Below are positions 44,354 to 52,233 of a stretch of 64,000 bases of DNA, one piece after another. The DNA comes from Bacteroidota bacterium (GTDB lineage Bacteria; Bacteroidota; Bacteroidia; UBA4408): NCBI GenBank assembly GCA_016721765.1, contig JADKHO010000004.1:288088-352087 (forward strand), given 5' to 3'. Numbering within the stretch: the stretch's first letter is position 1; every line of letters begins with the position of its first letter. The translations under genes and the position numbers were made by a program. The notes under the pieces are model-generated. The model ran no database searches. It was not told the DNA's origin and saw only the letters and a list, made by a program, of their open reading frames with translations.

Positions 44354-45109
44354 TTAGGCAACAAAATACATATCGATCTCACCCTTGTTTTTGGCAGGAA
44401 TTTTTCCTCTATAAATGCAATTGAATTTATCTTTGACTTTTTGATAAGTGCTTCCGCTGATATTCACTTTACCTGCTTCTCCGCTAGATTCAAGTCGTGC
44501 AGCAATATTTACAGTATCGCCCCAAATATCATATGCGAATTTTTTGAACCCAACTATTCCTGCCACAACCGGTCCGGTGTGTATACCAATTCTGATTTCA
44601 AAAATTGCTTTGTGCTCGCTTTTTCTAACTTCAAGATGGCGCTGCATAAACTGATTAATTTCGATAGCAGCTTTAACGACATCTTCGGCATGCGTAGTAT
44701 TTACGACTGGCAATCCACCGGCACACATATACGCATCCCCAATAGTTTTAATTTTTTCGATTCCATGTTTTGAAATTATCTCATCAAAAGCCTTGAAACA
44801 GGTATGAATTTCAGCAACCAATTCGGCCGGATTCAAACTTTCGGATATTTGAGTAAAGCCTTTAAAATCGGTAAACATTACAGAAACTTCATCAAATTGC
44901 TTTGCTTCTGCACTTCCGGTATTTTTCAACTCTTCTGCCACTTCCGGTGGAAGAATATTTAGCAACAAATCATCACTTCTCTTTTTCTCATAGCTGATTT
45001 TTTTTCGTTGCTTGACAACTAATATTAAAAACAAAGCCACAATTGCAAGTACTAATATAATTCCATTTCGAATAATTGCCTGAACTCTTAAACGTTCCTG
45101 ATATTCCAA
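44354..45109 (-). CDS. Class III adenylate/guanylate cyclase catalytic domain with N-terminal TM helix (TTG start; downstream half of an interrupted gene)
   Basis: Cyclase core FTDFKGFT..IKTIGDAYMCAGG..GIHTGPVVAGIVG..YDIWGDTVNIAARLES. It is in frame with the upstream TPR ORF across a single TAA. Confidence 0.75.
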   Translation of the reverse strand: MEYQERLRVQAIIRNGIILVLAIVALFLILVVKQRKKISYEKKRSDDLLLNILPPEVAEELKNTGSAEAKQFDEVSVMFTDFKGFTQISESLNPAELVAEIHTCFKAFDEIISKHGIEKIKTIGDAYMCAGGLPVVNTTHAEDVVKAAIEINQFMQRHLEVRKSEHKAIFEIRIGIHTGPVVAGIVGFKKFAYDIWGDTVNIAARLESSGEAGKVNISGSTYQKVKDKFNCIYRGKIPAKNKGEIDMYFVA

Positions 45110-45124
45110 TTTTTCGGTCTTTAA

Positions 45125-46144
45125 TTAAAAATCTTTTAATGCGTTTTGCTTTATCATTTCGGAATAGGCCAATTGATTTCGCTTTACTAAAATGTTGGTA
45201 CTATCGTTCCAAGAAAAATACAAACGATGCGCCTCCAGCGCCTTTTGCGGCATGTTCATTTTTTCGTACAAATAGCTTAGTTGCAAATAAACATCTCTTA
45301 ATACAGATTTTGCCCTTCCTCCTTTTCCTGCTTCAATTGCAGCTGTAAAACATTGCAAGGCATTGGCATAATCACCCTTTCTGAAATAAATTTTCCCCAA
45401 TCCCTTTAAGGAACCTGCCTTCACAAAAAACTCCGAAGAATCGCTAAGGGATAAACTTTTGGTATAGTAAATAAACGCTGAATCAGGCCTTTCACTTTCC
45501 AAAAAAACATCTCCCATGAGTTGGCAATCGTTACCGATAGAGTATGTATTTTTGAATTTATGATCAGAAGCCAAGCATTGCCGCAAGAGTGATTCAGCTT
45601 TTTCATAATTTTTTAAGGATAAATAAACAGCCGCCACATTGCCGAGCAAAAACACTGCTAATTTTTCATTACCCAAGTGCTTATACACGTTTATGCCGGC
45701 ATTAAAAGCATCCAATGCCTTATCATACTCACCAAGGGAGGAGTAGGAAAGCCCTTCTGTATTGTATGAACTGGCCAACTGAATGCTATCTTTCATTTCA
45801 ATCGCAAGTGCCTTACGATATGAATTATATTCTATTGCCTTACTATACTCTTCAATCCGCCAATAATATCCGCTTAAATTACGATACGCACGAAATAACC
45901 CATTGGTGTAGTTGATTCTTTTTGAAATGGCAAGTGCAGAATCTTCAAATACTTTTTCCACGCCAGGAGAATGTGCATATAAGGCCGCAAACTTAAAGTA
46001 CTGTATAACCTTTGCAGTATCAGTAGTCATCGAATTTGCAACGCGTACTAAAGAGTCAGGATTGGGATTGGAAACGGAGGCACTTGCCTTCAAAAAAAGG
46101 CAACATCCCAAAGAAAACATTAACCAAATTTGGCCCAATTTCAT
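45125..46144 (-). CDS. Secreted TPR-repeat protein (upstream half of the split sensor-cyclase)
   Basis: Signal peptide plus multiple TPR-like repeats. Confidence 0.6.
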   Translation of the reverse strand: MKLGQIWLMFSLGCCLFLKASASVSNPNPDSLVRVANSMTTDTAKVIQYFKFAALYAHSPGVEKVFEDSALAISKRINYTNGLFRAYRNLSGYYWRIEEYSKAIEYNSYRKALAIEMKDSIQLASSYNTEGLSYSSLGEYDKALDAFNAGINVYKHLGNEKLAVFLLGNVAAVYLSLKNYEKAESLLRQCLASDHKFKNTYSIGNDCQLMGDVFLESERPDSAFIYYTKSLSLSDSSEFFVKAGSLKGLGKIYFRKGDYANALQCFTAAIEAGKGGRAKSVLRDVYLQLSYLYEKMNMPQKALEAHRLYFSWNDSTNILVKRNQLAYSEMIKQNALKDF

Positions 46145-46289: not shown

Positions 46290-46964
46290 TTAGTTAAACT
46301 TGGTTGCTCTTCTATCTTGTCGCATTAATTTTTTTACTTTCTTGCCTCGTGTTCCTTGCAAGCGCTCCCATTTGCTTACCCTATCCCACAGTGGCACCGT
46401 ATAATTAGGGTTTCGAGCTGATGAACCATCAATAGCAACACTAATCTTATTAACTGTTCTCAGCGTATCCACAATGAATGGAATTCGAATTACATGCGGT
46501 TTAAATTTACGCAATAGGCTTTTTAATAAGGTTGCTTGAAAGGGATCAGTTATTAATGCCACCTTTTTAAAACCTAAACTATCCGCCATCTTGTGCCCGT
46601 AGTAAACATTTTCTACACTGTGCTCTGCTTCAATTTCGGCAAAGCAATTCTCTTTTGGAACACCCATTTTTTGTGCATATAAACACATAATTTTTCCTTC
46701 ATAAAATGGAGAATAAACGGAGCCTCCCGAAAAAATCAGGTTCTTCACTACACCTCTTTTGTATAAGTGCACCGCCCATATTACTCTTCCTTTCATCGCC
46801 GAATCCCAGCCACTTTCCACCCAAGGAACTCCGGGTACAATTCCAGCATCAAAAGGCGTCTTTTGAATTGCTTTTCGGTAAAGTTTTGTGGAATTGTTAT
46901 TAAAAAAAACACAAGAGCTTAAGAGAAATAGCACAGGGATTATAATTAAAAAATTCTTCATCAT
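46290..46964 (-). CDS. DUF218/YdcF (ElyC-like) family lipoprotein
   Basis: Lipobox LLSSC and a DUF218-like core (LIFSGG). Confidence 0.6.
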   Translation of the reverse strand: MMKNFLIIIPVLFLLSSCVFFNNNSTKLYRKAIQKTPFDAGIVPGVPWVESGWDSAMKGRVIWAVHLYKRGVVKNLIFSGGSVYSPFYEGKIMCLYAQKMGVPKENCFAEIEAEHSVENVYYGHKMADSLGFKKVALITDPFQATLLKSLLRKFKPHVIRIPFIVDTLRTVNKISVAIDGSSARNPNYTVPLWDRVSKWERLQGTRGKKVKKLMRQDRRATKFN

Positions 46965-46969
46965 ACTGG

Positions 46970-48577
46970 TTATGCGCTAGGAATTTCGGCTGTTTTATAA
47001 TTATCAATACGGCTCATGAAATTTTTCTTGAGGATGGTGGAGGCCGTAATAACGCCCGAAAAAAGAGCTCCACCCACGCCTACTGTTAATGTATCCTGGC
47101 CGGTTAAAAATAAATTTTTAATAGGGGTTTGAGGCCGCAACCAATTTAATCGAAATCGAGCCGGTGTATGCTCCAAACCATAAATTTCGCCATGCGTATA
47201 ATTGCAAAAATGCTTTGTCGACAATGGCGTGGAGAGTTCGCACAGTTCAACATTGCCTTTTACTTGAGGAACAATTTGATATAATTTTTCGAGCATTATG
47301 GTTTTAAAAGCTTCTTTAAAATTCAAATATTCATCCCCTCTTTTCATCCATTTTGTTTCTTCCCATTTCTTTGTCCACTCATACGAACAGGCCACAATAA
47401 TTTGAACAGTTGCTGTGTTAGCATTGTTTTCGGCCCAATTTGGGTCCTTGGCGGAAGGAAATGAAATGTAAAAAAGAGGTGGCTCCTCTGAACTGTTATT
47501 CATGTGCCGGTCAAAATCGGCATCAAAATCATAACTTTTATACACCCAATAATTCCATTTAGGAAGATTTAGTTCAGCATCCGACTTATTTAAGCCCACA
47601 TACAAACATAAGTGAGAAACACTGGGCTTTACATTAAGCAAGTCGGATTTAATTGCCTTCGTGCGCAATTCCAATTTCGGAATTAATTTATCAAAGGTAT
47701 TGCGAGCACCTGCATTGCTGATTATCTTACTCGCATAAATTTTTTCGCCGTCTTCCATTTCAACACCAACCGCAACTTTATTTTCCAATATTATCTCTTT
47801 CACATCGGCACGAATCAATACTTCCCCGCCTTGTTTGCGAATGACTTCAATAATATTTCTATAAATTTCGGAAGCGCCACCTATTGGATAATTTCCACCT
47901 TCCAAATAGTGTTCTGCAATCATGGCATGTATTGCAAAACTGCTTTTCTTTGGAGGCAAACCATAGTCACCACACTGGGCACACAGCACTGCAATCAACT
48001 CCTCATTTGAAGTAAGTTCCCTCAAAAAATCATAGGTAGTTTTATCGGAATAAGAATTGAATTTTTTGCGCAAAAAACGACCCAGCCATTTACTCAGGAA
48101 AGGTGGCATTGCCTTTTCTCCGAAAAACATTCCGGTGCCCTTGGAAAATTTTTCAATGCAATCGAAATAAGCACGTATGGCAATTTCTTCTTTAGGAAAA
48201 TAGGATATTAATTTTTGAATCTGATTGGCTTTGCCGGCAACAAACTCATATTCCTTTCCGGCAATTATTGCTTTGTCATAAATACTGCCCATTTCTGCCC
48301 ATTGAAGTTTGCCTCCGGTTATAAAATCAAAAGCTTTGCGCAAACTTGCCTTATGACTTTGAACTTGCCCCACATAATGCACACCTACATCCCATTTAAA
48401 CCCTTTACGTTTAAACGCATGTGTAAAACCACCCGGAACATAATGGCGCTCTAAAACAAGCACTTTTTTCCCTTCACCGGCCAGCAATGCAGCGGTTGTT
48501 AGGCCACCCAATCCTGAACCAATGACAATGGCATCAAAATTTTGGAAATTATAATCGGGAGTGTATTTTTTGTACAT
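46970..48577 (-). CDS. FAD-dependent oxidoreductase of the phytoene-desaturase (CrtI)/amine-oxidase family
   Basis: N-terminal DAIVIGSGLGGLTTAALLA..GKKVLVLE dinucleotide-binding fold and a 535 aa length. Confidence 0.7.
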   Translation of the reverse strand: MYKKYTPDYNFQNFDAIVIGSGLGGLTTAALLAGEGKKVLVLERHYVPGGFTHAFKRKGFKWDVGVHYVGQVQSHKASLRKAFDFITGGKLQWAEMGSIYDKAIIAGKEYEFVAGKANQIQKLISYFPKEEIAIRAYFDCIEKFSKGTGMFFGEKAMPPFLSKWLGRFLRKKFNSYSDKTTYDFLRELTSNEELIAVLCAQCGDYGLPPKKSSFAIHAMIAEHYLEGGNYPIGGASEIYRNIIEVIRKQGGEVLIRADVKEIILENKVAVGVEMEDGEKIYASKIISNAGARNTFDKLIPKLELRTKAIKSDLLNVKPSVSHLCLYVGLNKSDAELNLPKWNYWVYKSYDFDADFDRHMNNSSEEPPLFYISFPSAKDPNWAENNANTATVQIIVACSYEWTKKWEETKWMKRGDEYLNFKEAFKTIMLEKLYQIVPQVKGNVELCELSTPLSTKHFCNYTHGEIYGLEHTPARFRLNWLRPQTPIKNLFLTGQDTLTVGVGGALFSGVITASTILKKNFMSRIDNYKTAEIPSA

Positions 48578-48640
48578 ATTAAGCTATCAATAGTACAAAA
48601 AACGTTTGAGCTAGTAAATTGTTTTTAGGCTGAATGCAAA

Positions 48641-49882
48641 TTAATTTGCTTCCGCTCCCATACGAATTACTTGTGCAAGCGACTTCACCGCGCGTTCATG
48701 CTTTTTCACAAATGGGTTTTCTAAATCCCACACATACCCGGCTAAAACAGAGCAAATTTGCTTTTTAATCTCGGGATTTGAGGCTGCTCCTACAAAGAAA
48801 ATATCGTGTAAATCCCCATTGTACCAAGCGGATACATAGGTTCTAAAGGTATCAATTCCTTGCATCATGTAATCAGTATAGTCTTTTTGCCAATTTACTT
48901 TTTCTCCTTTAAGGAAAGCCCCAACTAACTTACCGGCTTTATTTCCGCTTTCCATAGCAAAGGTAACGCCGCTTGAAAATACTGGATCCAAAAATTCGGT
49001 CGCATTTCCGCATAGCACAAATCCATCCCCAAATAGTTGTTTAGTACTTATCGAATATCCTTCGATGGTGCGCGGTTCAAATACCATTTCTGCATCTTTA
49101 AATCGCTCGGCTGTATGTTCATTTGTGGCAACAATTCCGCGCATGCGCTCACTAAAATTTTCAGAAAATTCATTGTAAAACTCAGGATCTGCTACAAATC
49201 CAACAGAAGTAATTCCATTGCTAAACGGAATAATCCATATCCAGGTACGCTGTTGGTGCACCACTACTGTTATGCGGTTTCCATCAATTCCTTCGGGACG
49301 TTTTAAGTCCTTGAAATGTACAAAATGTGTTTTACGCGGTTCAAAATTAGATGGCTTATCCAATCCAAACATACGCGGAATTACACGGCCATAGCCACTT
49401 GCATCCACTATAAAGCGCGCCTCAATCTGCTTCTCAGTTCCGCTTTTGTCAACCACTGTGGTGGTTGAATCTGTTCCTCTAAATTCAATTTTAGTTACTC
49501 CGGTTTGGTGTTCTACCTCCACGCCCATTTCGGCAATTCCTTCCGAAAGCAACAAATCAAACTGTGCACGCGGCACTTGCCAGGTCCAATTCCAACCTTT
49601 TGTAAACTGGTCGGCAAAATTGAAATCGCAAACCTCCTTGCCCCGCACGAATTTAGCACCGAATTTTTCTTGAAAACCGGCCTTTTTAACGCGTTCCAAT
49701 AAACCGGCCTCGTCTAAGTGATCCATTACACGTGGCAATAAACTTTCTCCAATCACGAAACGCGGAAATTTTTCCTTTTCCACTACTTTTACTTTAAAGC
49801 CTTGCTTATGAATCATGCTGGCAGCAATACATCCGGCAGGACCTGCTCCAATAACTAATACGTCTACTTTTTCAGTGTTCAT
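48641..49882 (-). CDS. Flavin-dependent halogenase-like / geranylgeranyl-reductase-like FAD monooxygenase
   Basis: VDVLVIGAGPAG FAD motif and a WIWIIP (WxWxIP) motif. The ORF track begins at a TTG at 49906; the first ATG is at 49882. Confidence 0.6.
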   Translation of the reverse strand: MNTEKVDVLVIGAGPAGCIAASMIHKQGFKVKVVEKEKFPRFVIGESLLPRVMDHLDEAGLLERVKKAGFQEKFGAKFVRGKEVCDFNFADQFTKGWNWTWQVPRAQFDLLLSEGIAEMGVEVEHQTGVTKIEFRGTDSTTTVVDKSGTEKQIEARFIVDASGYGRVIPRMFGLDKPSNFEPRKTHFVHFKDLKRPEGIDGNRITVVVHQQRTWIWIIPFSNGITSVGFVADPEFYNEFSENFSERMRGIVATNEHTAERFKDAEMVFEPRTIEGYSISTKQLFGDGFVLCGNATEFLDPVFSSGVTFAMESGNKAGKLVGAFLKGEKVNWQKDYTDYMMQGIDTFRTYVSAWYNGDLHDIFFVGAASNPEIKKQICSVLAGYVWDLENPFVKKHERAVKSLAQVIRMGAEAN

Positions 49883-50065
49883 TTTGTTAAATTTCTTAGG
49901 TAACAAATTACTATAAATATTGTTTGCAAAAAACGCAACAATTATACATACAAATTGATTCGCGTCGGTATGATTTGAATCATAGCATTTACATCAACGA
50001 ATGGGAAATAATTCGCGAATGTGTCTAAAATCAACTTAAGCCTAGGCGTTATGGTTTAAATACTA

Positions 50066-50350
50066 ATCCTTTATCCTAGATTTATGCAAAATCGCTTCAA
50101 TTAATACAGCATCTTCTTTAACAGAAAATGCAATGAGCTAATCCTTGAAATAAATACATTTCAACTCAAAATTCCGGAATGTTTCATTATGACACATGCC
50201 GATTATTTTAGGAAAACTTAGCTTTATTTTGAGCTGCTGTTCAAATTTACTTAACCATCTTAAACCTGCGCCTTTAGTATTGTGCGCTTCAATAAAATTA
50301 ACCAAGCTTGCCAAAGATTCAACAGCATCATTGGTATAGTTAATTTTCAT
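50066..50350 (-). pseudogene. ParE/RelE-family toxin gene disrupted by an in-frame TAG at 50138-50140
   Basis: Reading through the TAG restores a ~95-codon ORF. The recovered C-terminal continuation, LIAFSVKEDAVLIEAILHKSRIKD, matches the toxin C-terminal pattern. Confidence 0.5.
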
Positions 50351-50577
50351 TGTAATCCTTTGCGGATAGATTGATGCGCCTTTTCCATGGAAATGCTGCC
50401 GCTTTCTCTGCTCTTACTAATTAATACCTTAATTTCCTTAGCCGAAAGACTCTCACCGGGCAAGAAGGATTTATTCTTATCCGCATCAACCAAAGTCAAC
50501 TCCAAACTATTTTCTTTTGCGAAATCGAACAGCTTTTTTAAATCCGATTTTTTAGCATTTCCCAATTGTAATAACAT
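50347..50577 (-). CDS. Putative antitoxin (76 aa) upstream of and overlapping the toxin gene
   Basis: ATGA overlap with the toxin ORF and small size. No specific family assigned. Confidence 0.35.
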   Translation of the reverse strand: MLLQLGNAKKSDLKKLFDFAKENSLELTLVDADKNKSFLPGESLSAKEIKVLISKSRESGSISMEKAHQSIRKGLQ

Positions 50578-50649
50578 TGCTTTGCTTTTAACGAAATATA
50601 ATAATAATTCAATAAATAAAACTCAATTTTAAGGTTAATTCATTATTCA

Positions 50650-52233
50650 CTAATTACTCTTAAACTCCCCAAAAACAGTGCGCATCACATCTGCAATTTC
50701 ACCTAAGGTAGCATAGTTTTCAGTAGCTTCCAAAATTATGGGCATCAGGTTGGTGTCGGCTTTAGCGGCAGATTCCAACTGTACTAAAAGTTCATTCACT
50801 TTCACATTATCGCGCTCAGACTTTACTTGATTTATCTTATCGATTTGCACTTTCCGAATGGAATCGTCAATTGTAAACGTATCTAAAATTGGTGCTTCAT
50901 CAATTTCAAACTTATTTACACCCACCAAAATTTTACTTCCATTTTGTATGTTGTTTTGATACTGATACGCAGATTTTGCAATTTCATTTTGGATGTAGCC
51001 TTCCTCAATCGCACTAACAGAGCCTCCCATAGCATCAATTTTACGAATATAGTCCCATGCTGCAGCTTCCACTTCATCGGTTAAGGCTTCCACAAAATAT
51101 GAACCTGCCAAAGGATCTACGGTATCGGCAGCGCCACTTTCGTAGGCAATAATTTGTTGTGTGCGCAAAGCAATGCGCGCTGCTTCCTCGGTTGGCAAGG
51201 CTATCGCTTCGTCAAAACCATTAGTATGCAAAGATTGTGTGCCACCCAAAACTGCTGATAGCGCTTGCGTAGTTACCCGCACAATATTATTTTGCGGTTG
51301 CTGTGCTGTTAAGGTACTGCCGCCGGTTTGTGTATGAAAGCGCAGCATCATAGCACGTTCATCGGTTGCGCCTAATTCGCGTGTAATGTGTGCCCACATT
51401 CTACGCGCCGCGCGAAACTTTGCCACTTCTTCAAATAAATTATTGTGTGCATTAAAGAAAAAGGACAATCGTTTCGCAAATACATTTATATCCAATCCCT
51501 TGTCAATCGCGGCTTTCAAATATGATTTTCCATTGGCTAAAGTAAAAGCTAATTCTTGAACTGCAGTAGAACCTGCTTCCCTTATGTGGTAACCGCTAAT
51601 TGAAATGGTATTCCATTTTGGCACTTCCTTGCTACAATATTCAAAAATGTCGGTAATGATGCGCATGCTGGGCTTTGGCGGATAAATGTATGTCCCCCGT
51701 GCTGCATATTCTTTTAAGATATCATTTTGAATAGTGCCCGAAATCTTTTTTAAATCGGCCCCTTGCTTTTTTGCTAAGGCAATATACATGCTGAGCAAAA
51801 TCGAAGCAGTAGAGTTAATGGTCATGGAAGTAGTTATATTCTCCAACTGAATTCCATCAAAAAGTATTTCTATATCCCGCAAGGAATCAATTGCTACGCC
51901 GGCCTTTCCCACTTCACCATCCGAAAATTCATGGCTGCTGTCGTATCCTATTTGTGTAGGTAAATCAAAAGCAACACTCAAGCCGGTAGTGCCGTTGTTT
52001 AATAAATAATGGTATCGTTTGTTGGATTCTTCGGCAGTGCTAAATCCGGCATATTGCCGCATGGTCCAAAGCTTGGAGCGATACATGGTTTCCTGCACCC
52101 CGCGGGTAAACGGGAACTTTCCGGGCTTTCCCAATCCTTCACTCACACCACCTGATTCAAAGGGAGAATAATCGGATTTTATTTCAATTCCCGAATCGGT
52201 TTCAAATTTTTCTTGTCTTAACTTTTCGCTCAT
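50650..52233 (-). CDS. Methylmalonyl-CoA mutase family protein, catalytic (substrate-binding) domain only
   Basis: Mutase TIM-barrel signatures [17 protein letters not shown]. It ends at 527 aa without the C-terminal B12-binding domain. Confidence 0.85.

Follow-up and report, generated by a model that had tools for sequence, protein, structure and literature searches.

A proposed two-gene ParE-family toxin-antitoxin operon in a Bacteroidota genome, with its toxin gene probably inactivated by one recent stop codon

Within the window, by which we mean the whole 64-kb stretch of DNA that was analyzed, two small genes follow one another on the minus strand, and the second of them is interrupted by a premature stop codon. 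The locus comprises the following features.

50347..50577, minus strand: presumed antitoxin gene (the partner gene), 76 aa, intact, with ATG at 50577 and TGA at 50347-50349; IPP32_15535.
50141..50350, minus strand: toxin codons 1-70, with ATG at 50350, predicted to encode β1, the α1-α2 hairpin with its invariant NTxGAGxRW turn, and β2; IPP32_15530.
50138..50140, minus strand: premature TAG at toxin codon 71, replacing an invariant Trp (TGG) and reading CTA on the plus strand.
50066..50137, minus strand: former toxin codons 72-95, untranslated, LIAFSVKEDAVLIEAILHKSRIKD, corresponding to the remainder of β3, the whole of β4 and the C-terminal HKSRIKD; open and undamaged.
50063-50065, minus strand: original toxin stop TAG, which closes the 24-codon open tail.
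50593..50600, minus strand: putative promoter element TATATTTC, a 7/8 match to the Bacteroidota -7 consensus TAnnTTTG.

The TGA of the partner gene and the ATG of the toxin gene share an ATGA overlap, as a sequence-only reading of this DNA had stated for its open reading frames of 76 and 70 aa, and the coordinates of both frames were confirmed on the minus strand. That reading had also claimed that translation through the TAG at 50138-50140 would add 24 codons; this is correct, the frame being open as far as the TAG at 50063-50065. The altered base is position 50139 of the plus strand, where it is a change from C to T, equivalent to G to A on the coding strand. Both IPP32_15530 (70 aa) and IPP32_15535 (76 aa) are annotated as hypothetical proteins at NCBI, on a contig of 947,657 bp. 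The two genes are small, co-oriented, adjacent and overlapping, and the pair is conserved across loci, which is the layout of a type II toxin-antitoxin module. No second copy of either gene was found within the 64-kb window.

The element TATATTTC is located 16-23 nt upstream of the partner ATG, inside the 72-nt spacer that follows a methylmalonyl-CoA mutase gene. TAnnTTTG is the -7 promoter consensus of Bacteroidota, and loci of the same subclade carry a TAnnTTTG-like box 12-28 nt upstream of the partner ATG. A sigma-70-like match at 50626..50598 overlaps TATATTTC, and a search for an operator upstream of the antitoxin gene returned short, imperfect inverted repeats only. In most Chitinophagaceae loci (L009-L052), a strongly conserved TTTGTAyATTTAyyT abuts the partner ATG (16 nt before ATG; e.g. 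L010, L020 and L022). This motif, which could serve the module either as its operator or as a -7 promoter box that gives rise to a leaderless mRNA, is without a counterpart at the ATG of the window locus.

With the premature stop masked, the 95-aa read-through product scored 23.8 bits against the Pfam family PF05016 (ParE_toxin), barely above the cut-off of 23 bits, in a match covering profile positions 1-88 of 89. The truncated product of 70 aa reached 12.7 bits, below the cut-off, and the intact allele P0033 scored 27.9 bits; PF05016 was matched by 22 of 30 members of the toxin family (E ≤ 0.01). A search of 5.8 billion proteins yielded 28 homologues of 95-96 aa that span 100% of the read-through query, plus one 75-aa fragment. 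Since these homologues cover the full length of the query, and since all 24 residues of the tail (24/24) are identical to those of P0033, the allele of L084, the open tail goes far past what chance would give. NCBIfam and PADLOC scans of the toxin gave no match, and no profile match to RelE-type families was obtained for the toxin family.

The structure of P0033, which is 97% identical to the repaired window protein, was modeled with AlphaFold at a pLDDT of 90 and a pTM of 0.77. In this model, β1 (residues 2-5), α1 (7-23), α2 (28-43), β2 (64-68), β3 (71-78) and β4 (81-89) follow one another in the order β-α-α-β-β-β, a fold of the ParE/RelE type. A Foldseek search with the model showed that the best 23 fold matches in the PDB are all ParE-family toxins from toxin-antitoxin complexes, with TM scores of 0.67-0.83. 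They include Vibrio ParE2 (7r5a), PfiT (9w3a), Mesorhizobium ParE (6x0a and 5ceg), PrpT (7ycs), E. coli O157 ParE2 (5cw7), M. tuberculosis ParE1 and ParE2 (8c24 and 8c26), P. aeruginosa ParE (6xrw) and Caulobacter ParE1 (3kxe), whereas RelE, YoeB, YafQ and HigB were poorer matches (TM 0.44-0.62). A sequence profile search of the PDB with the toxin gave no significant match; the agreement with the PDB by fold and not by sequence indicates a divergent ParE clade. By profile score and predicted fold, the full-length form is a ParE-family toxin. The resemblance of the ~95-aa read-through product to ParE/RelE toxins, which had been suggested from the letters of the DNA, was thus borne out by the profile search and placed nearest to ParE by the fold. 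The full-length ancestral form has the ParE fold; the encoded 70-aa product is without β3 and β4. By analogy with ParE toxins, we infer that the ancestral protein was toxic and that its target was DNA gyrase.

The most conserved motif of this toxin clade is the hairpin turn NTxGAGxRW at residues 24-32 (50255..50281, minus strand), in which Asn24, Thr25, Gly27, Ala28, Gly29 and Arg31 are invariant and Trp32 is nearly so. According to a 2025 preprint (10.1101/2025.07.24.666505), it is through the α-hairpin that Vibrio ParE2 contacts gyrase. Given this contact on the hairpin, the NTxGAGxRW turn may, by analogy, be the target-binding site of the clade.

Alignment showed that position 71 is Trp in all 29 full-length homologues, and codon 71 is TGG in all three intact relatives, L001, L084 and L085. 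Nucleotide identity to the window is 92.3% over 5.5 kb for L001, 95.8% for L084 and 96.5% for L085, and L001 has the same gene order as the window (partner, toxin, FAD-dependent oxidoreductase, amine-oxidase-like protein, DUF218 and cyclase). The TGG of the three relatives identifies the lesion as a single G-to-A transition on the coding strand. With translation ending there, the protein is stripped of β3, β4 and the conserved C-terminal HKSRIKD, and so of half of the four-stranded sheet. Two toxins of the close relatives, P0032 (L085 191-478) and P0033 (L084 180-467), each carry one substitution at an otherwise invariant or nearly invariant position, W32R and F58C, either of which may weaken the toxin or may be an error of low coverage.

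The age of the lesion was addressed by comparing the window with L001, using dN/dS by the method of Nei and Gojobori. In the tail, 11 codons differ from those of L001 and 9 of them are synonymous, which corresponds to 9.5 synonymous and 2.5 non-synonymous differences and a dN/dS of 0.04 for codons 72-95. The corresponding values are 0.07 for the partner gene, 0.02-0.06 for three neighboring genes, and 0.50, from 10 differences only, for toxin codons 1-70. Against L084, no codon of the tail is changed. The low dN/dS of the tail, together with its identity to that of P0033, indicates that purifying selection acted on it throughout practically the whole period of divergence. Judged by these sequence comparisons, the nonsense mutation at codon 71 is very recent.

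The 76-aa partner is inferred to be the antitoxin that would neutralize the toxin. Its gene is intact and, on the dN/dS of 0.07 against L001, under purifying selection, and it is conserved upstream of the toxin gene in more than 70 loci, with overlaps of 4 to 17 nt. Among species-representative genomes, the Chitinophagales partners are 77-80 aa long, usually overlap the toxin start by 11 nt, and have the consensus MLLQLENT..KLLxFAKxNxLxLSLxD..LPGKPLT..L..LI..SRKSG.ISM..AH..IR. In Mucilaginibacter loci, a related partner of the form MTTLIIKSDS.KKT.LL.QLAEELGL...GIGRKATDEEL.DYL... occupies the upstream position. The claim of a retained antitoxin therefore stands with respect to retention, the upstream gene being intact, constrained and widely conserved, but the protein falls outside all described antitoxin families, and its role is therefore assigned indirectly.

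Searches for a known relative of the partner were uniformly negative. The window partner gave no match to Pfam, NCBIfam or PADLOC, 30 partners from related loci gave no consistent Pfam or NCBIfam match, and a partner profile run against PDB sequences returned chance calmodulin-like matches only. A word-seeded profile search collected 290 partner homologues, all of them unnamed or uninformatively named and none with a precomputed Pfam domain. Across 1.84 billion representatives, a full profile search turned up only 109 partner relatives, and Pfam scans of 10 longer or multi-stretch ones among them connected none to a known family. Assignment of the partner to ParD/CopG ribbon-helix-helix proteins, Phd/YefM, PaaA2 or another described antitoxin was rejected, as no profile or sequence match was seen. 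The AlphaFold model of the partner is weak (pLDDT 64), with helices at residues 10-22, 46-59 and 64-75; such a model is compatible with an antitoxin that folds upon its toxin and proves nothing. Some partner relatives (the group of P0159, P0162, P0166, P0167 and P0172) are 57-66 aa long and are without the N-terminal β-α-β module, and P0159 has two tandem C-terminal modules. The sequences suggest that the partner is modular, with a toxin-binding part that would be separable.

We then turn to the family as a whole, in which 75 loci from GTDB species representatives were re-examined by tblastn, 52 of them being of the Chitinophagales type. Among these 52 loci, the toxin gene is intact in 33, interrupted by one or more in-frame stops in 9, frameshifted in 7 and of unclear state in 3; most of the surveyed genomes are metagenome-assembled genomes (MAGs), and some of the frameshifts may be errors. 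The stops fall at different codons across loci, indicating independent events; the toxin of L038 has its stop at the same Trp71. Where the toxin is broken (n = 16), the partner is intact in 14 loci, once with a GTG start, and both genes are lost in the other 2. The reverse state, a broken partner beside an open toxin frame, was seen in one locus only, L034 (2769-3005), where an in-frame stop interrupts the partner (LKLS*IDD). Left without an antitoxin, the toxin of L034 should kill the cell unless it has no activity or is neutralized in trans. This asymmetry of loss, 14 against 1, is what a poison-antidote relation predicts, supporting the partner as the antitoxin. As a pattern read from gene sequences, it is the best evidence available here for the antitoxin role.

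The MAG Co_metawrap_2420 contains three paralogous cassettes (L012, L029 and L038), in which one toxin and all three antitoxins are intact. Its two broken toxins have in common a 3-codon deletion in the invariant GAGxRW turn and carry separate stop codons. The three paralogous antitoxin copies in one MAG gave dN/dS values of 0.15-0.60, from 5-15 differences, too small a number to judge selection on orphaned partners by. The genes that flank the cassette were also compared. The L002 cassette is located between acyltransferase genes near mraZ, and that of L004 follows a gene for a peptide chain release factor (Pfam PCRF/RF-1). The window cassette (46290..52233 compared) lies between the methylmalonyl-CoA mutase gene and an FAD oxidoreductase gene. 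Unrelated neighborhoods in different genera would fit a two-gene unit that is mobile. In Klebsiella pneumoniae, antitoxins are frequently found orphaned next to degraded toxins, and an anti-addiction role has been proposed for them (PMC7192599).

Based on these findings, we propose that the two genes form a chromosomal toxin-antitoxin operon of type II whose ParE-family toxin was inactivated by one recent Trp71-to-stop mutation and whose antitoxin gene is intact, a reading to which we assign a probability of roughly 85%. The partner gene would come first and the ParE-family toxin gene second, with the ATGA overlap coupling their translation. A single recent G-to-A change would then have converted the TGG of the invariant Trp71 to TAG, so that translation would end after 70 residues. 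The resulting fragment would keep β1, the α-hairpin and β2, and the hairpin would lose half of the sheet on which it packs. With half of the β-sheet gone, the structural model indicates that the 70-aa product is most likely unfolded and non-toxic. In agreement with a role for the lost region, the C-terminal part of ParE proteins is enough by itself for toxicity, and C-terminal truncation of Caulobacter ParE1 lowered both toxicity and solubility (PMC6813445). The fragment does keep the α-hairpin, to which, by analogy with the gyrase contact of Vibrio ParE2, residual activity or antitoxin binding might be attributed, but it is unlikely to fold. The antitoxin gene would be untouched and expressed from its own putative promoter. 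With the toxin dead, the antitoxin would become dispensable, and the locus would stand at the first step of the usual course of decay, in which the toxin is lost first and the antitoxin later. The description of the locus as degenerate and decaying thus holds in that the toxin is broken by a TAG; "degenerate" is too strong for what is a single point lesion.

It could be argued that the TAG is an error of sequencing, polishing or assembly and that the toxin gene is intact in the organism. The source genome is metagenome-assembled, a tail without further damage is what an error would also leave, and a second nonsense codon is found within 5 kb, in a cyclase gene with these features.

44354..46144, minus strand: TPR-sensor, transmembrane, adenylate/guanylate-cyclase gene, split by a CAA-to-TAA change at 45125-45127.

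The observation of a second nonsense-interrupted gene within 6 kb, which had raised the suspicion of a systematic base-calling problem, is therefore sound: L001 (92% identical) retains Gln at this cyclase codon. The suspicion itself is disfavored. An exact-sequence look-up found both window proteins on the 5,976-nt Logan contig SRR11673995_2200388, assembled from SRA run SRR11673995, which is 100% identical to window positions 50827-47138 over 3,690 nt (3.7 kb) and carries the same TAG at codon 71. From this contig, the broken cyclase gene likewise yields precisely its N-terminal fragment of 339 aa, so the cyclase TAA is present as well. A separate assembly from raw reads thus reproduces both stops, making an artefact unlikely, although the assembly of SRR11673995 may not be an independent sample, as the same reads may also have built or polished the MAG. 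Moreover, both lesions are substitutions and not the homopolymer indels typical of long reads, and toxin nonsense or frameshift mutations in 16/52 loci of other genomes indicate that genuine inactivation is common. G:C-to-A:T transitions, the type of both lesions, are the commonest spontaneous class. A six-frame scan of the 64-kb window for neighboring long open segments with one stop between them, with candidate pairs then run against Pfam, recovered the cyclase gene only; the other checked pairs are separate genes with complete domains. The absence of further split genes argues against a systematic problem, and on the same ground a high pseudogene load was rejected; two pseudogenes among ~56 genes are unremarkable. 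Taken together, we regard an error at codon 71 as very improbable. The downstream fragment of the cyclase gene retains a complete Guanylate_cyc domain (Pfam, 188 bits). Starting at a TTG at 45109, it could, as judged from the sequence, still give a cyclase that has lost its sensor.

With the mutation taken as real, its consequences could still be read in other ways. One is that the gene is attenuated rather than dead: a low level of read-through of the TAG, which is followed by C, would supply trace amounts of toxin, the antitoxin would buffer it, and a weak module would keep working. The perfect preservation of the tail fits this, and W32R and F58C in P0032 and P0033 hint that weakened toxins are tolerated or favored in the clade. 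A recent mutation, however, explains the preserved tail equally well. TAG is a normal stop in this genome, closing 11 of 56 long window ORFs (TAA closes 39 and TGA 6), and no suppressor tRNA was found in the 64-kb window. Bacteroidota are not known to have a read-through signal, and the basal rate of read-through normally stays well under 1%. We accordingly give this alternative very little weight. Recoding of TAG as a sense codon was rejected in view of this stop usage and the want of a suppressor tRNA in the window, and also of the cyclase lesion, where the stop is TAA in place of Gln. Another reading is that the pair is not a toxin-antitoxin module at all, the ParE-fold protein and its partner having some other, non-toxic role and the stop marking an ordinary dispensable gene. 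The partner is indeed outside every known antitoxin family, and some ParE-family proteins were non-toxic when tested in E. coli (PMC6813445). Against this, the fold and Pfam matches are to ParE toxins from toxin-antitoxin complexes, the operon layout with its small upstream gene and stop/start overlap is conserved, the neighborhood varies between genera as that of mobile toxin-antitoxin cassettes would, and the losses are asymmetric, with 14 toxin-only cases against 1 partner-only case. We consider a non-toxic pair unlikely, and favor a toxin-antitoxin operon with an inactivated toxin.

The loss of a toxin to one stop codon, with the antitoxin surviving next to it, is a textbook route of decay and alone matters little. 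The locus offers a clean, datable snapshot of the first step on that route, with an invariant Trp hit and intact alleles present in related populations. About one-third of the Chitinophagales ParE-clade loci have a broken toxin, and the partner is rarely broken, which provides genetic support for the unannotated partner as an antitoxin. As Pfam, NCBIfam and the PDB have no entry for the partner family, this clade would be a candidate for annotation. We further speculate, as a tentative proposal that is less probable than not, that the partner represents an undescribed, Bacteroidota-restricted antitoxin family, with an optional N-terminal β-α-β module and a C-terminal two-helix toxin-binding module; that the toxins form a divergent NTxGAGxRW ParE clade; and that the survival of orphans reflects selection as anti-addiction or immunity genes against incoming cassettes, not a mere lag in decay.

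The proposed operon is reminiscent of the ParDE systems, such as those of RK2 (ParDE), Caulobacter (ParDE1, 3kxe), V. cholerae (ParDE2, 7r5a) and M. tuberculosis (ParDE1, 8c24), with which it shares a ~95-aa toxin of β-α-α-β-β-β order in PF05016, an antitoxin gene in first position and overlapping genes. Unlike in those systems, the toxins of the window clade are only 10-18% identical to solved ParE toxins and have a specific invariant hairpin turn, NTxGAGxRW, no sequence test identifies the partner as a ParD (ribbon-helix-helix) protein, and the window toxin ends at codon 71. ParE-fold toxins with unrelated, non-ParD antitoxins are represented by PaaA2-ParE2 of E. coli O157 (5cw7/5czf), PrpA-PrpT of Pseudoalteromonas (7ycs) and PfiA-PfiT of Pseudomonas Pf4 (9w3a), and the toxins ParE2, PrpT and PfiT are among the best fold matches to the window clade; the 76-aa partner, in contrast, has no detectable sequence similarity to the PDB chains of PaaA2, PrpA or PfiA.

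The ribosome-dependent mRNA interferases RelE, YoeB, YafQ and HigB have the superfamily fold and Pfam clan in common with the window toxin, from which they differ in that its fold is nearer to ParE and in that it matches no RelE-type profile. The state of the locus resembles that of the orphan-antitoxin loci of Klebsiella pneumoniae (PMC7192599), where an antitoxin has outlasted its inactivated toxin without a change of genetic context. In the window, unlike in those loci, decay would be at its very first step, a single substitution, while intact alleles circulate at 96% nucleotide identity.
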